Below are positions 30,001 to 39,000 of a DNA stretch of 64,000 nt, one piece after another (positions within the stretch are counted from its first letter, which is position 1; every line of letters begins with the position of its first letter). Made by a program: the position numbers. This DNA comes from Bdellovibrio sp. Its GTDB lineage: Bacteria > Bdellovibrionota > Bdellovibrionia > Bdellovibrionales > Bdellovibrionaceae. Location of the stretch: positions 288,001-352,000 of the forward strand of contig JAKFCY010000002.1 of the NCBI GenBank assembly GCA_036676395.1, written 5' to 3'.

Positions 30001-33000
30001 CGCGACCAGGTTGCACGGCGGTTGCAGACAATTGTTTCGACGCGAATAATGTTTCTTTAAAATGTATCTGTTTTAGAAATCCAGAAAGCGCTCAATGTAA
30101 GGGTTCAGCAAATCTGAACGTTAAGGCTAATGAAATGGATGCAAGTGGATTTGCCGCAAAGAAAAATAGCATCGACACCCGCAGTAATAATTCTGAAGTC
30201 AGTGGTATGGCGGCAGGTAAAGCTACCGAGGGCTTTAGCAACATAGATAATGCTGGTCAAAAACCTGAAATTTATGCTCAATCTGAATTAATTTCTGAAG
30301 CAGCCAGCGGATCAACGATAAGTTCTGCCGGAAACACTGGCGGCGAAAAATCAGCTGTGGCTGCTGCGAGTGCCAGCTCTGGTGGTGCCGGCAACGTTTC
30401 AAAAAGCGCTAATCCTTCGCCAGCAACAGCAAAAAACAACGTTAGTGTAGGCAGTAAATTGAGTGGATTTTTTAATACAGCAAAATCAGCTATTGGTGGA
30501 ATTTTTAAAAAAGGTTCTGGCAATAAGGAATCGTCTGATGATTACCGTGATGGCAGTAATCCATCTTTTGATCAGAAAAAATTTCGACCACGTGGAATGG
30601 TTCGTGGAATTGCCAGTGTTGATGGGCTTGCTGGCAAACACGAAGACATCTGGAAAGTTATGAATAAACAATACAAAGTTCAAGACCAAAAAGACAATTT
30701 TATTTTCGAAAAATAGTCACTAAAGCGCGAAGCTATAAATTGTTGTTAGCTGACCTTTTACCGAGGCGTCTAATGAACATTGAGCATCACCGCAGGGGAT
30801 GTCGTATCTAGCATTTGGTGGTCTGAAAATTTTATTCATTGCCGATTGTTCTAAAGCTTCGATAAGTGTTTTTGTTAGGGCTTGGCCTTCTGTTGTTGTT
30901 GGCGTTGCTTTAAGTAACTCGATCGCTTTTGCGAAAGCTACGTCAGACATAAAATCATTTTGTTTTAGATTTGAGAATGTAAAGCTGTAGCTATAGTGGG
31001 CGCAGCCGCCTGTAGTGAAAGCTAATTTTACTTTTCCTTTTTTTAGAACTGCTTTTTGTGTCAGAACTTTTTCTTTGTTATTACGCACTGGTTTTTTGAT
31101 TGAGAGAAAGTCTTTTGATTTTTGATCTAACGCTGATTTTGCATTCGGAAAATCGTACGCGCACTGGTCTTGTGCTTGTGGAGCTTCAGCAAAAGCATTG
31201 GCTCCAGTTAGTAACGCTACACAAATTAGGGTGATTATTTTTTTCATACTATTTGCCGAGTGCTTTTTTAATGGTCTCGTTGATCGCAGCTGGCTCAGTG
31301 TTTGGCGCGAAACGCTCAATCACTTTACCGTCTTTGCCAACTAAGAATTTTGTGAAGTTCCATTTAACGGCTTCTGTACCTAAAATTCCCGGAGCTTCTG
31401 CTTTTAAATGCTTATAAACTTCTGCTGCTTCTCCGCCATTCACTGCAACTTTATCTAAAACGGGGAATGTTACGCCGTAGTTCATTTCGCAGAAAGATTG
31501 AATTTCGTCACTTGTGCCGGGTTCTTGTGAACCGAATTGGTTGCATGGAAAACCTAAGATCACTAGGCCATTATCTTTGTGTTCTTGATACAATGCTTCT
31601 AGGCCTTTGTATTGTGGAGTAAAGCCACATTTACTGGCTACATTCACGACCAAAACAACTTTGTCTTTATGTTGTGATAAGTCATAGTCTTTGGCCTGGG
31701 CATCTTTAACTGTAAAATCAAAAAAACTTTTTTTCATATCGGTCCTCTCGTGTGGATATTTTGCTTCTGATGGCACCTGATAGTTTGTTCCTATCGGTTG
31801 ATCAAGTTATCGCAAACTCCTGCTTTGTATGTAGCCCACTATAACAGTTTTATTGTACGATAACATAGTACTTTCTAAAGGCTAAAACCTTTAGTTATAG
31901 ATGAATAGAGAATAGCTATATGTCACTAAGCAACATACCACAGACCGTTTCTTTAACTCGTAATCCGAACTTGTCGGCACCGAAAGTTGATCGCACCTCA
32001 GCAAATGAAGTGCAGCAAAAATTTGGTGAGCGCTGGTGGACAGGTTTACATCCTGAAAAATGTACCGGCTTTGATCGCGAGAAAAAATACCTGGCGGCCT
32101 TGCCATTAATTAATTTAGAAATTTGCACGCGCCAAGATGTGATGGATTATTTCGACAACACTTGGACGCTGACTGAAATTTTGTTCGCTGGTCTTAAACA
32201 TGAATCAACCTACATTCGTCCGCCGTATCATCAGCTGCGTCATCCGCTGATGTTTTATTACGGTCACCCGGCAGTTTTATTTTTAAATAAACTTCGTTTA
32301 GCTGGGGTTGTGGATAATCCTGTGGATTTGTACCTCGAGAAAGTCCTTGAAACCGGCGTGGATGAGATGTCTTGGGATGATATGGCTAAAAATGAAATGG
32401 AATGGCCAAATGTGGCAACCGTTCATGAGTATCGCCAAAAAATTTATAACTTAATTAAAAATGTAATTCAGACTCATCCAGATCTGGATTTAGCCGCACG
32501 CAAAGCGAAAAATATTCAAATAGGGCCGCAACATCCGCTGTGGTCGTTATTTATGGGTTTTGAACATGAAAAAATACATTTCGAAACTAGCAGCGTGTTG
32601 ATGCGCGAACTTCCGATTGAATTAGTTGAAACTCCGAAATACTGGGCGCCACTTTATGATTCTAAATCTACAAAGACGGCAAAACCAGCAGCAGGAAAAG
32701 ATTTTCCAGCGAACACTTGGAGTGCGCAAAAAGGATCTCTGGTTAGTTACGGAAAATCTGAAAACGCACCAAGTTTTGGTTGGGATAACGAATACGGTTA
32801 CAGAAAATCTAAAACAAAAGATTTTCAGTTAACTGAACAACTTATCAGTAATGGTGAATATTTTGATTTCGTCGCAAGTGGCGCTTATCAAGAAGATAAA
32901 TACTGGCAGGCTGAAGGTTTGATGTGGCGTAAGTTTCGCAATACCAAACGCCCGACGTTTTGGGTGGCTTACGGGCCAGAAGGTTTACACGAGTATAAAT

Positions 33001-36000: not shown

Positions 36001-39000
36001 TCTCCTTATCAAGGCGAACAAGTGCATTCAACACCGTTTATTAATTTTAAACCAAAAGGCGCGATGAGCAAAAAAGAATTGTCTGATAAATTGAACGCGC
36101 AAAAGATTTTTCACGCAGTTCGCGGCCCGGGTTTACGTTTTACACCGACGGCCTTTAATAGCGAAACTGATCTTGAAAAAGCCCTTTTAGCTTTAAAATA
36201 ATTGTTAAAACCTGCTATATCGCCTCTGCAAAAAGTCTTGTATTAAATTGAGACACTGACTCAAGTCTGTATCATTTATGACCGATAAGCTCCCATGAGG
36301 GAATGCATGAGCAAACTAGTTTTACTTATCAGTTTGATGATGAGCTTTATTGCCATTAAAGCTAATGCTTTATCAGGTGAGGATCAAATTAAAGCTGATT
36401 GTTATAAAAAAACAGGAAGCTACGGTGGATCTAATCCGAAGTCTCCGTACCAGTTATGTTTGCGTGCAAACGGTATTCTTAAAGTTGAAAGAAACGTCAG
36501 CGGCAGCGATGATAAATCGAAAGCAGATGCGCGTATCTGTAATGCCAGTAATCCACTTTGTAGTAAATGTATCGGTCTTTATGGTTCTGGTGATGCGAAA
36601 AGTGCCAGAACAAAAATTACAGAATGCGTTCAACGCGAAGAAAATAAACGAGCTTCAGCTGCAAAGCCAAAACCAAAAGAGCCAACCATTAATGGCGGAC
36701 GACTACAAGAAGTCACAGTTACAGCGCGGGCTCCGTGTTCAAAAACAAATCCACGTAATTGCACAACGATGACGGCATGTGAAACAAACAATGGCGTATG
36801 GAGCGACCAAGCTCAAGCCTGTGCCGCGACGCCATGCCCGACAGGAACTACGCCTGATCCTCGCGATTCAAAATATTGTGTTTGTGATAGCGAAATGACC
36901 CCGTATTCAATTGAACGTGGTTCAGCACAGCAATGTCCGGCCATGTGTAAATCCGAAGATCATAAAGAGTATAATATCGTTGTTCGCGGTTGTATTTGCG
37001 CGTCCGGTTTCGAAGACCGCACCGGGGCAGGCACATGCGTAAGTAAAGTAGCCGCTCCTGCGTCGCAAGTGGCAGCTTGTATCCAAGAGTTACAAGATAA
37101 AATTACTGCCTGTAATACGGCCTCTACAGCGGCGGTCGAAAAATGTGATCCAAAACGTGAATCACGTGAGGGAGATTCTCTTGATGCTCTTCAAGGTTTA
37201 TTCCAGGGTGCTGCCGTGGCCGGTGGTGCTGCCGGAAACTGTGGGCAGGCTGCCATTGCCGGTTCTACGGGTTATTATGCTATCGAAGAATTGCGCGGAG
37301 GCTGTGATAATGAAATTAGCGCCTGCAAAACAAGCTGCGGTGATGCTACGGCGTACATCAATGCAAATAAAGACCGTGTTTACCAAAAATGTCGTGCAAA
37401 AGCTTGGGATGATCATCAATGTTTAGCTCCTTCAGCTACGACTTATCGATCGTTTACTGAGGATGCATTCAATGTAGAATGGGACGGAGTAAATAGAGCT
37501 CCGTTCGAACAGCAAATTCAAGCCATGCAAACTAGTGTTACAGATTATAATTCAAGATGCGAAGCTGGCGGAACAGCTGACAGTAACCGTGATAAGATGA
37601 CGGGTTTCATGGATGACATGAATTCAGCGTACAAAAGTGCAAAGCAGTGTGAATGTCAGTTAGGTTCTGGCGCTAATTGTGATAGCCAATCGGGCCCGGC
37701 AGAATGTGCAGGAAACCCTTCGCTTCCTGGTTGTGCGCTAGTTGGAGTTAACTGTTTAAGTGCCACAGACAATTCGCCTAAGTGTGTTTGTTTTAAAAAT
37801 CCGAACAGTGATGAATGTAAAAACATTCAACAAACTAATAATAACTTAAAAGTAAACTCTACTGATGTAAGTGCATTTGCTGGCGTCGGCAGTGGCGTTG
37901 GTGGATCTGCTTCTGGTGGTGGCGATGTTGCTGGAAAAACCGATTCAGGTAATGTGAATGTTGGTGATTTAAGTGGTGTGGGTGCAGATGATGAAGCTAT
38001 CGGCGCTAATGCCTCAGGTACTACAACTGTCGATGCAGGATCACCTTTTGGTGCGGCTGCAGGTGGCGGTAGTGGTGCTGGCGGCAGTTCAGGTGGCGGC
38101 GCAAATGGTGCAACAGCTGCTGAAGCAGACGGTGAAGAGGAAAGCACAGGTAAAAAACTCGGTGGCCTTTTTAATGTGGCAAAGTCTGCATTAGGAAATT
38201 TATTTAAAAAAGGCAAAGACGATAAAGGCACTTATGATCCTGTGACTGGAAAATATATTAATGAAAATGGTTTAGATTCTAAAAAATGGCGTCCTCGTGG
38301 CATGGTGCGCGGGCTAGCTGGTGATACAGAAATCGCCGGCAAGTTCGAAGACATCTGGAAAGTCATGAACCGACAATACAAAATCCAAGATCAGAAAGAC
38401 ACGTTTCTTTTTGGTGGGGAGAAGAAGTAATATGAAAAATATCATGATGTACTTATTTATTGTTTTCTCTTTGTTTGGCGTAAGCACAGTATTTGCTGAA
38501 GACTGTGAAACGGCGGGAGAAGTTAAACTTTCGCAGCTGAAGTTTGTCGGTGCAGATCTAAAACCATTACTTCGAAAAAATGGTGCTTGTACTGTCGTTA
38601 AAGCATCGAATGATACTGCAGGGCGAGCTGCCTGTGGAACAAAAAGAGCGGCTCTTAATCCTGGAAATCCTCAGTACACGGGCACAGAAAAGCATGGTAG
38701 CCAGACGAATAATAACTTAGGTTATTACTTCTGTGTGGGCATGAACAAACGAGCAATGTGTAACGATCGTATCAGTGAGCTTGGCAGCACAATGGATATT
38801 GTTTGGAAGCAAACCGGTAGCAACGAGCGTAATGATGGTGATTGTCTTTGTGGAAAAAAAGGCGATGGGTCGACAAAGATGATGGCATGCCCAGTAACCA
38901 AAGCGCAGGTTGATGCCTTTAAAGACGGAAAAACAACAGGCTGTTCTGTTCAGGGCTCTGAAGATGATGGTGATGGAAATTGCCGCTGTCTCGCCGGCGA

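Follow-up and report, generated by a model that had tools for sequence, protein, structure and literature searches.

A two-gene unit of Bdellovibrio sp., in which a sulfoxide synthase fused to a pyridoxal-phosphate (PLP) decarboxylase is followed by a class V PLP enzyme, is a real, conserved and new variant of thio-imidazole biosynthesis. We give an even chance to the reading that this operon makes a decarboxylated thiohistidine, i.e. thiohistamine; if so, some Bdellovibrio-like predators would produce a relative of histamine that bears sulfur and is new to science. The unit and its surroundings are laid out as follows along the window, the whole 64,000-nucleotide stretch of DNA analyzed here.

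31249..31776, minus strand: divergent glutathione-peroxidase-like gene (175 aa; GSHPx, 1.6e-41), context only, not conserved in the unit
31920..35069, plus strand: fusion gene (1049 aa; ORF and translation), with an NHISS sulfoxide synthase domain, a linker and a group II PLP decarboxylase domain
32109..33515, plus strand: NHISS domain, DinB-like and FGE-like, residues 64–532 (TIGR04344 match; alignment to OvoATh2, 8khq)
33516..33773, plus strand: conserved inter-domain linker, residues 533 to ~618 (between the NHISS match and the DDC-type structure alignments)
33774..35066, plus strand: group II (fold type I) PLP decarboxylase domain, residues ~619–1049 (PF00282)
35062..36201, plus strand: class V PLP enzyme (379 aa), likely sulfoxide C-S lyase, with K211 as the PLP-binding residue

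The NCBIfam model TIGR04344 (ovoA_Nterm; cut-off 400) matches the NHISS domain over residues 64–532 with 579.4 bits. Pfam places an FGE-sulfatase match at residues 276–533 and a DinB_2 match at residues 78–223, the latter under its cut-off (21.6 bits versus 24.8). Alignments to DDC-type structures start at residue 619, and Pyridoxal_deC (PF00282) covers residues 630–990 and HMM positions 8–374 of 375 (8.3e-62, 209.5 bits versus 27). Pfam and NCBIfam give no methyltransferase match in the fusion protein, and PF00282 lies where OvoA has its methyltransferase. The preliminary description, an OvoA-type NHISS joined to a decarboxylase that replaces the methyltransferase, was recovered with the same ORF, domains and bit scores using Pfam/NCBIfam, as was the 8-nt overlap of the fusion gene (31920–35069) with the class V gene (35062–36201). 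A database search with the fusion protein gave 1231 homologues at E<=0.001, and PF00282 and PF03781 are both present in all of the best 120. The named proteins among these 120 come from Bdellovibrio, Bacteriovorax or Pseudobdellovibrio and are all called "5-histidylcysteine sulfoxide synthase", just as had been said of the databases. Full-text searching found no description of the fusion in the literature.

The active site of the NHISS domain could be mapped by alignment to OvoATh2 (8khq, 346 bits). The Fe ligands H116/H216/H220 correspond to H71/H162/H166 of OvoATh2, the Cys-binding R107/Y113 to R62/Y68 and the catalytic Y485 to Y406, residues whose roles are described for OvoATh2 (PMC10696552). 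All of these are kept in 121/121 fusion proteins and F518/H519 in 120/121, every mappable catalytic residue thus being kept in at least 120 of the 121. The genome (assembly 99.3% complete) carries a single NHISS gene and EgtD was not found in it; histidine, rather than hercynine, is therefore the likely substrate.

Alignment of the decarboxylase domain with 4obu, GADL1 and GAD65 pairs K877, D845, H763 and Y906 with their counterparts in these structures. From the DDC/GAD literature, we take H763 to be the PLP-stacking His, D845 to bind the pyridine N, K877 to be the Schiff-base Lys and Y906 the catalytic-loop Tyr. Such a Tyr protonates Cα once CO2 is lost, and a lyase would not need it. H763, D845, H876-K877 and Y906 are invariant in 121/121 fusion proteins. 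The decarboxylase is intact with its His-Lys and Asp, as previously noted, and has also kept the loop Tyr. The best solved relative is 4obu, an aromatic-type decarboxylase (Ruminococcus gnavus-type; 195 bits, 5e-56), and the 32% identity to a Bacillus aromatic decarboxylase quoted earlier was not reproduced as such. Acidic-type solved relatives reach ~150 bits, with GADL1, GAD65 and CSAD at 1e-43 to 1e-40. All substrate-defined NCBIfam equivalogs stay far under their cut-offs (DABA 157/900, PanP 126/606, MfnA 109/299, HDC 71/305, GAD 35/380), so that the substrate cannot be read from the sequence. Standalone relatives of the domain in the sampled Bdellovibrionota share 25–39% identity with it and occur in unrelated contexts. 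One neighbor cluster in the Atlas bears the name cysteine sulfinic acid decarboxylase, which is a lead only.

The class V gene immediately follows the fusion gene in 22/22 fusion-bearing genomes among the 401 sampled and in 8/8 related loci with enough DNA, some organisms being present in both counts. This adjacency, together with a missing desulfurase Cys loop, makes the partner the likely sulfoxide C-S lyase. It is a class V PLP protein (Aminotran_5, 3.1e-44), whose closest solved relatives by sequence are SufS desulfurases (1e-29 to 1e-22) and whose fold ties with that of the C-DES C-S lyase. We rejected its assignment as a SufS-type desulfurase: the SufS model gives 125 bits against a cut-off of 475, with a match that ends at position 324 of 403, and a true SufS (529 bits versus the same cut-off) is encoded elsewhere in the genome. 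Aligned to that SufS, 6/6 members of the partner family show a 15-residue gap at the persulfide-Cys loop. Membership of the EgtE family was likewise rejected: the TIGR04343 match (56.7 bits; cut-off 400) covers only HMM positions 45–228, and the solved EgtE 8irk matches at no better than 2e-7. Of the earlier assignment to the cysteine-desulfurase/EgtE kind, the class V fold therefore stands and both named families fall. The partner and EgtE do resemble each other in that both are class V PLP enzymes encoded together with an NHISS, and EgtE itself has been placed under CsdA-like PLP transferases in an NHISS neighborhood table (PMC13674229). What distinguishes the partner from both EgtE and C-DES (cystine C-S lyase, 1elq/1n31) is a flexible family-specific loop with two invariant Cys, C245 and C253, where pLDDT falls below 50 at residues 239–243; the two Cys could be a relocated persulfide site. 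In the sample, 31 genomes that lack the fusion encode more distant homologues of the partner (28–41% identity).

In the pathway that we infer, the NHISS domain would convert L-histidine, L-cysteine and O2 to histidyl-cysteine sulfoxide. The class V enzyme would then perform a β-elimination at the cysteine C-S bond, leading through a sulfenic acid to thiohistidine, and its two invariant loop Cys may reduce the sulfenic-acid intermediate. Finally, the C-terminal group II PLP decarboxylase would remove the α-carboxylate from thiohistidine, giving thiohistamine; this order is tentative, and decarboxylation could be the earlier step. A decarboxylated, unmethylated thio-imidazole is the most economical product, given an intact decarboxylase, an obligate class V neighbor that is not a SufS and an operon without a methyltransferase. 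The partner's likeness to desulfurases by sequence, its loop Cys as a conceivable persulfide site and the occurrence of homologues of either PLP enzyme apart from the fusion count against the pathway. We retain the earlier proposal of an unmethylated, decarboxylated product (5-thiohistamine or a close relative) to the extent of such a thio-imidazole; its 5-position is put in doubt by the F-H-F motif described below.

The end product might instead be thiohistidine (2- or 5-), with the decarboxylase-like domain serving as the C-S lyase or in a structural or regulatory role and the class V enzyme otherwise employed, e.g. in sulfur supply or removal. Fold type I PLP enzymes readily switch reaction type, and the domain reaches the cut-off of no decarboxylase equivalog. 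We nevertheless consider this unlikely, as the invariant Y906 lines up with the loop Tyr in three decarboxylases of solved structure, and as the ever-adjacent class V enzyme, with its desulfurase Cys loop gone, is best explained as a lyase. No likelier, in our view, is that thiohistamine or thiohistidine is an intermediate only, which unlinked enzymes methylate, acylate or conjugate into a larger metabolite or cofactor. Thio-imidazoles are already known to serve as building blocks, as dipeptides of 2-thiohistidine and an acetylase for 5-thiohistidine show (PMC13674229), and the operon contains neither a transporter nor a regulator; however, the ten fusion loci examined hold no conserved tailoring gene within ~7 kb, and the pair travels as a self-contained unit through two families of Bdellovibrionota.

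Distinctly improbable is a scheme in which a cysteine-dioxygenase side activity turns cysteine into cysteine sulfinate and a CSAD/GADL1-like decarboxylase turns this into hypotaurine, or in which the decarboxylase acts on some other, unrelated amino acid. OvoATh2 and other OvoAs do make cysteine sulfinate, predominantly once active-site tyrosines are mutated (PMC10696552), and both the presence of GADL1, GAD65 and CSAD among the best solved relatives and the Atlas cluster name point the same way. Yet Y113 and Y485, the counterparts of Y68 and Y406, whose loss gives dioxygenase activity, are invariant, and so is the entire histidine-side motif. Moreover, the aromatic-type 4obu outscores the acidic-type relatives, and the scheme leaves the obligate class V partner without a role.

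Within the thiohistamine reading, we slightly favor the 2-isomer over the 5-isomer. The composite active-site motif of OvoA is RxYH--DxHxHYF(Y/F)AFx (Kayrouz et al. 2024 preprint), and the Ala of its (Y/F)-A-F part is said to mark C5/histidine enzymes. The fusion reads RHYH--DSHIHYF-FHF-F, i.e. F-H-F instead of (Y/F)-A-F, and departs from the published motif by this A to H change, which is seen in 14/14 fused rows of the alignment and in 120/121 fusion proteins. As a control of the mapping, all 48 type A (Erwinia-type) rows conform to the OvoA motif: 46 carry its published most-common form exactly and two have Q at the free second position. In the tree, the fusion falls into a 31-row clade of the OvoA branch with L021 and L023, which have the identical composite motif and ligase genes as neighbors (ATP-grasp and GCS2, respectively). 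Clade mates with ATP-grasp/GCS2 or other neighbors score as high as the fusion with TIGR04344 (552–598 bits), and the name of this HMM is thus uninformative on regiochemistry. All tested NHISSs from NHISS-ATP-grasp clusters gave the C2 sulfoxide of histidine (PMC13674229). In AshA (9PHY), an enzyme of this kind with catalytic Y493/F496, the His-Phe pair H526/F527 contacts the substrate amine; in the fusion, Y485/F488 are followed by H519/F520, a possible counterpart of this pair whose offset from the catalytic Tyr, +34/+35, is one residue off the +33/+34 of AshA. With the OvoA motif broken by F-H-F and the grouping with ATP-grasp-cluster enzymes, a description of the N-terminal part as a full OvoA module making the 5-isomer is not supported. 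The motif alone is not decisive for C2, since L024, L027 and L028, which fall within this F-H-F clade, combine a methyltransferase domain with an OvoB-like neighbor, and their pathway looks like that of ovothiol (C5). Taken together, motif and clade suggest 2-thiohistamine with slightly better than an even chance and 5-thiohistamine with somewhat less.

The fusion is present in 22/401 sampled Bdellovibrionota genomes, from three genera, and to call it common in this phylum was an overstatement. By tblastn, the inter-domain linker was found at 13 loci (L001–L013), every one in Bdellovibrionota. The fusion proteins form a monophyletic group (SH-aLRT 100), which is nested among enzymes of OvoA architecture with a methyltransferase domain, a topology which implies that the fusion arose by a domain swap at the place of the tailoring domain. 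Like OvoA (OvoATh2), the fusion has a DinB-like and FGE-like NHISS fold with a three-His iron site, Cys-binding Arg/Tyr and a catalytic Tyr, shares 14/15 composite-motif residues and bears a second catalytic domain at its C-terminus. It differs by His in place of Ala, by a group II PLP decarboxylase instead of the SAM methyltransferase, and by a neighboring class V lyase candidate, whereas OvoA stands beside the MalY-like class I/II OvoB.

With the AshA/TgiA-II type of thiohistidine-dipeptide clusters (PMC13674229), the fusion shares the OvoA-like branch, a non-OvoA active-site motif and histidine as likely substrate. The AshA/TgiA-II type has a vestigial methyltransferase where the fusion has its decarboxylase; its clusters include an adjacent ATP-grasp gene, whereas none was found among 27 neighboring ORFs scanned at nine fusion loci; and its pathways borrow a lyase, while the fusion unit co-encodes a dedicated candidate. 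The Streptomyces tgi-like NHISS (L098) is far more divergent (323 bits). Group II PLP decarboxylases (4obu, GADL1/GAD65/CSAD, DDC, HDC) have in common with the fusion a full-length PF00282, the PLP-site residues and the loop Tyr; the domain of the fusion differs in sitting behind an iron enzyme and in belonging to no substrate-defined NCBIfam family.

Apart from the fusion and the class V gene, no conserved genes surround the pair. The divergent glutathione-peroxidase-like gene reported upstream is indeed there, but it is kept only in the closest relatives, at 3/80 related loci (L001, L002 and L004), all of them among the 13 fusion loci; at L012, an AhpC/TSA gene is found upstream of the fusion instead.

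The fusion gene and its class V partner lie next to a divergently transcribed glutathione-peroxidase-like gene, in the following arrangement (window positions):

28821–30716, forward strand: ORF of 631 aa, no Pfam or NCBIfam match
30720–31319, reverse strand: ORF of 199 aa downstream of the peroxidase gene, weak ErpA/IscA-like match (E 0.002)
31249–31776, reverse strand: glutathione-peroxidase-like ORF, 175 aa, divergent
31920–35069, forward strand: fusion ORF, 1049 aa, ATG start
35062–36201, forward strand: class V PLP partner ORF, 379 aa, overlapping the fusion by 8 nt
36295–38430, forward strand: ORF of 711 aa, no Pfam or NCBIfam match
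38411–40345, forward strand: ORF of 644 aa, no Pfam or NCBIfam match

The N-terminal sulfoxide synthase (NHISS) domain of the fusion matches the NCBIfam model TIGR04344 (ovoA_Nterm) with 579 bits (cut-off 400) over residues 64–532, together with a Pfam FGE-sulfatase match and a sub-threshold DinB_2 match. The C-terminal part, residues 630–990, covers positions 8–374 of the 375-position Pyridoxal_deC model (8e-62). No methyltransferase was matched in the fusion with Pfam or NCBIfam, and the substrate-specific decarboxylase models of NCBIfam all scored far under their cut-offs. The ORFs and their overlap are as given in the preliminary description and its domain scores were reproduced with both databases, which confirms the observation itself. 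A scan for promoters and terminators gave counts no higher than in shuffled sequence. A large protein collection contains 1231 relatives of the fusion, the best 120 of which all carry PF00282 and PF03781; those that are named among these 120 are called '5-histidylcysteine sulfoxide synthase' and come from Bdellovibrio, Bacteriovorax or Pseudobdellovibrio, with Bdellovibrio svalbardensis and Bdellovibrio sp. NC01 among the named carriers.

The catalytic residues of both halves are conserved. The NHISS domain was mapped by HMMER alignment (346 bits) onto the Hydrogenimonas thermophila OvoA, OvoATh2 (PDB 8khq), in which H71, H162 and H166 are described as metal ligands, R62 and Y68 as cysteine-binding and Y406 as catalytic (PMC10696552). 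The three ligands correspond to H116, H216 and H220 of the fusion, R62 and Y68 to R107 and Y113, Y406 to Y485, and F409 to F488. Alignment of the decarboxylase half to 4obu (195 bits), GADL1 and GAD65 places H763 at the PLP-stacking histidine, D845 at the aspartate of the H-x-D-A/G motif, H876-K877 at the Schiff-base His-Lys and Y906 at the mobile-loop tyrosine, 29 residues past the lysine. The spacing from the lysine to the loop tyrosine is the same in DDC and HDC. All mapped positions of both halves are identical in 121 of 121 proteins (the fusion and its best 120 relatives of the 1231), so that purifying selection acts on each domain as an enzyme. The conserved C-terminal arginine (R1023 in the fusion) is, as far as known, common to all group II enzymes. 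The genome encodes a second group II decarboxylase of 578 aa (G000:C2:2250007-2251743, reverse strand), for which the best model is an enterococcal-type tyrosine decarboxylase (220 bits, cut-off 905).

A collection of species-representative genomes yielded 13 fusion loci, all from Bdellovibrionota, the closest being that of Bdellovibrio sp. qaytius with 90% identity. A class V homologue lies directly 3' of the fusion in all eight loci with enough downstream DNA, and in a ninth it starts at the contig end; its start either overlaps the fusion stop by a few bases or falls within about 35 nt of it. Among 401 sampled Bdellovibrionota genomes, 22 from three genera (9, 2 and 11 genomes) carry the fusion, and the class V orthologue adjoins it in 22/22, with 42–93% identity; these genomes and the 13 loci represent partly the same organisms and are not independent. 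The fusion is in one piece in 19 of the 22 genomes, cut by contig ends in two and interrupted in one. Examination of the ORFs neighbouring the fusion loci revealed no other conserved gene around the pair: the peroxidase gene is found upstream only in L001, L002 and L004, and an AhpC/TSA gene takes its place in one Bacteriovorax locus. The locus is a two-gene unit with obligate pairing and three intact catalytic modules, and the pathway variant that it encodes is real and conserved.

In the one interrupted case (G372:C17:46178-50824), the fusion is found in two pieces, residues 4–354 and 599–1044, each with an in-frame TGA; the distance between them is about 2.3 kb instead of the expected 0.7 kb or so. 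This copy is probably disrupted, and an intact class V gene follows it.

The partner matches Aminotran_5 (3e-44) and remains under the SufS cut-off (125/475 bits). Its suggested kinship with EgtE was not borne out by the corresponding model (57/400). A bona fide SufS, with 529 bits against the cut-off of 475, is encoded elsewhere in the genome, as is a further class V enzyme whose Aminotran_5 match is full-length. When six members of the partner family were aligned with this SufS, a 15-residue gap fell exactly at the SufS cysteine loop. On these grounds, the true SufS, the other class V enzyme and the missing loop, we rejected the partner as a second housekeeping desulfurase. The 27 partner sequences keep the PLP lysine K211, D185 and Q188, and a loop specific to this family holds two cysteines, C245 and C253, that are invariant. 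The alignments show a predicted lyase-type active-site architecture without the desulfurase cysteine, and the partner is best viewed as a C-DES-like lyase candidate with a SufS fold, not as a member of the EgtE family. Look-alikes in the Protein Atlas were generic class V and decarboxylase clusters only.

To place the fusion among its relatives, we built a maximum-likelihood tree of 79 NHISS domains, with a quick search and SH-aLRT support only, leaving out the short matches L030 and L032. The 14 fused sequences form one clade (support 100). It is nested in a group of 31 rows (support 100), whose other 17 members are non-fused enzymes from cyanobacteria, Melainabacteria, Planctomycetota, Actinomycetota, Myxococcota and Pseudomonadota; the other group, of 48 rows, comprises the OvoAs of the Erwinia/Methylophaga/Halomonas type. 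An OvoA architecture with a methyltransferase domain (777–898 aa) is found in 13 of the 14 non-fused group members scanned, the exception being L019 (538 aa), and the decarboxylase thus took the methyltransferase's place within the protein. In three of the related clusters (L024, L027 and L028) the adjacent gene encodes a class I/II aminotransferase of the OvoB kind, and the class V enzyme stands where these carry the OvoB-like gene.

The same group bears on which imidazole carbon, C2 or C5, is sulfurized. An ovoselenol preprint sorts NHISS enzymes by a 17-position composite motif, which ends in NWF in EgtB-IV; it states that OvoA and OvsA, the C5 enzymes that accept histidine, are recognizable by an alanine where the C2 enzymes have a bulky aromatic residue. 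We read the motif positions from the 79 NHISS sequences through the 8khq alignment. All 48 Erwinia-type rows conform to the published OvoA definition, 46 of them with the exact most common motif, which validates the mapping. The 14 fused rows and 16 of their 17 non-fused clade mates instead have RHYH--DSHIHYF-FHF-F, and 120 of 121 fusion proteins (the fusion and the best 120 of 1231) carry the F-H-F triplet, so that by the published definition the NHISS domain of the fusion is not an OvoA. The NHISSs of ATP-grasp clusters are reported to sit on the OvoA-like branch, to accept histidine and to form the C2 sulfoxide; the imidazole proton left in the sulfoxide is given there as about 7.23 ppm for the C2 product (5-H) and about 7.88 ppm for the C5 product (2-H) (PMC13674229). 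In one of these, AshA, H526 and F527 follow the catalytic Y493 and F496 at offsets of +33/+34 (PMC13674229), one residue apart, in numbering, from the +34/+35 of H519 and F520 in the fusion. The clade mate L021 (Polyangiales) is preceded by an ATP-grasp gene of the L-amino-acid-ligase type and also has an MFS transporter among its neighbours, and L023 has a GCS2 ligase neighbour. TIGR04344 scores L021–L023, with their ATP-grasp, GCS2 or HisG neighbours, at 552–598 bits, as high as the fusion, and its name therefore cannot support the '5-'. A tgi-like cluster of Streptomyces (L098) pairs an NHISS with a RimK-type ATP-grasp gene; this NHISS is far more divergent (323 bits) and for that reason no help on regiochemistry. 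Against a firm C2 assignment stand the OvoB-linked clade mates, which carry the same motif, and the clade itself, which is internally unresolved in the tree. We lean, by a modest degree, towards C2, and the 5-isomer proposed in the preliminary description is probably not the better guess.

The third of these loci, L022:5823-9295 of Streptomyces boncukensis, has its F-H-F NHISS-methyltransferase gene directly after HisG (ATP phosphoribosyltransferase), with genes for a GFO/IDH/MocA oxidoreductase and a HAD hydrolase coming next, and is an uncharacterized type of thio-imidazole cluster.

These assignments suggest a pathway. The NHISS domain would join histidine and cysteine with O2 into a histidyl-cysteine sulfoxide; the genome (99.3% complete) has a single NHISS and no EgtD was found in it, which argues for histidine over hercynine as the substrate. 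The class V enzyme would release a thiohistidine sulfenic acid by PLP-dependent β-elimination, leading to thiohistidine; such a sulfenic intermediate is documented for EgtE, and C245 and C253 may serve here as its internal reductant. In canonical OvoA a separate lyase makes the substrate of the fused domain, and by analogy the fused decarboxylase would most simply act on thiohistidine, making thiohistamine (C5H9N3S) a plausible product. The steps may also run in another order, the NHISS domain acting on histamine for example, which would leave the product unchanged. Were the decarboxylase-like domain itself the lyase, thiohistidine would be the product, a reading disfavored by the invariant loop tyrosine and by the constant presence of the partner. 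The latter also speaks against a cysteine dioxygenase and CSAD-like route to hypotaurine, which we disfavor in view of the invariant sulfoxide-synthase tyrosines and the histidine-side motif as well. Alternatively, thiohistamine may be only an intermediate.

In the genome (99.3% complete) the models of GshB (TIGR01380), E. coli-type GshA (PF04262) and GCS2 (PF04107) all went unmatched, and this lack of matches to glutathione-synthesis genes, with a peroxidase-like gene next to the pair, makes an endogenous alternative thiol an attractive speculation. Combining all parts, these predators could make 2-thiohistamine, an ergothioneine-like thione without carboxylate or betaine that is not known from nature, by a self-contained two-protein machine, in which the fused domain would be the first dedicated thio-imidazole decarboxylase and the invariant cysteine pair of the lyase would reduce the sulfenic-acid intermediate; during predation the compound might, speculatively, act as a low-molecular-weight redox buffer of the cell itself, or as a metal ligand. 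We offer this combined scheme tentatively and consider it rather doubtful that all of it holds at once.

A full-text literature search returned no description of an NHISS-decarboxylase fusion, of ovothiol in Bdellovibrio or of natural thiohistamine; in the text retrieved, 'mercaptohistamine' occurs only in citations of a 1977 acid-dissociation study of 2-mercaptohistamine. A 2021 survey of bacterial OvoAs selected only three-domain proteins, and its text contains neither 'decarboxylase' nor 'Bdellovibrio'. A 2026 census of NHISS-gene neighbourhoods lists no decarboxylase; genome mining by neighbourhood would overlook this case, since the additional enzyme is part of the same protein and not encoded by an adjacent gene. 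Histidine-derived thiols and selenols are known in just four chemotypes, besides a few recent derivatives. An October 2026 paper on thiohistidine dipeptides calls enzymatic tailoring of these scaffolds 'exceedingly rare' and knows only an acetylase outside the canonical pathways (PMC13674229). If true, the fused decarboxylase would extend the thio-imidazoles by a class of amines and bring a new enzyme activity to biocatalysis, and would provide a concrete, testable molecule for the little-studied redox chemistry of Bdellovibrio-like predators. The finding also reveals an annotation problem: more than 1000 proteins owe the name '5-histidylcysteine sulfoxide synthase' to a model that scores C5 enzymes and probable C2 enzymes without telling them apart.

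The contexts of the nearest standalone decarboxylases (L100–L103) and of distant class V homologues (L104–L107) had nothing informative in common. Elsewhere in Bdellovibrionota, an AhpC/TSA peroxiredoxin gene comes after one standalone relative of the decarboxylase domain (L103:5842-7790), and a distant class V relative adjoins a thioredoxin-like DUF255 gene (L106:4015-7085), a faint recurring redox association. Around the pair itself, the 199-aa ORF is conserved only in L001 (60% identity). The ORFs of 631, 711 and 644 aa match the same regions of L001 and L002 in tblastn, with 26–57% identity, which suggests that they form a local paralogous family.
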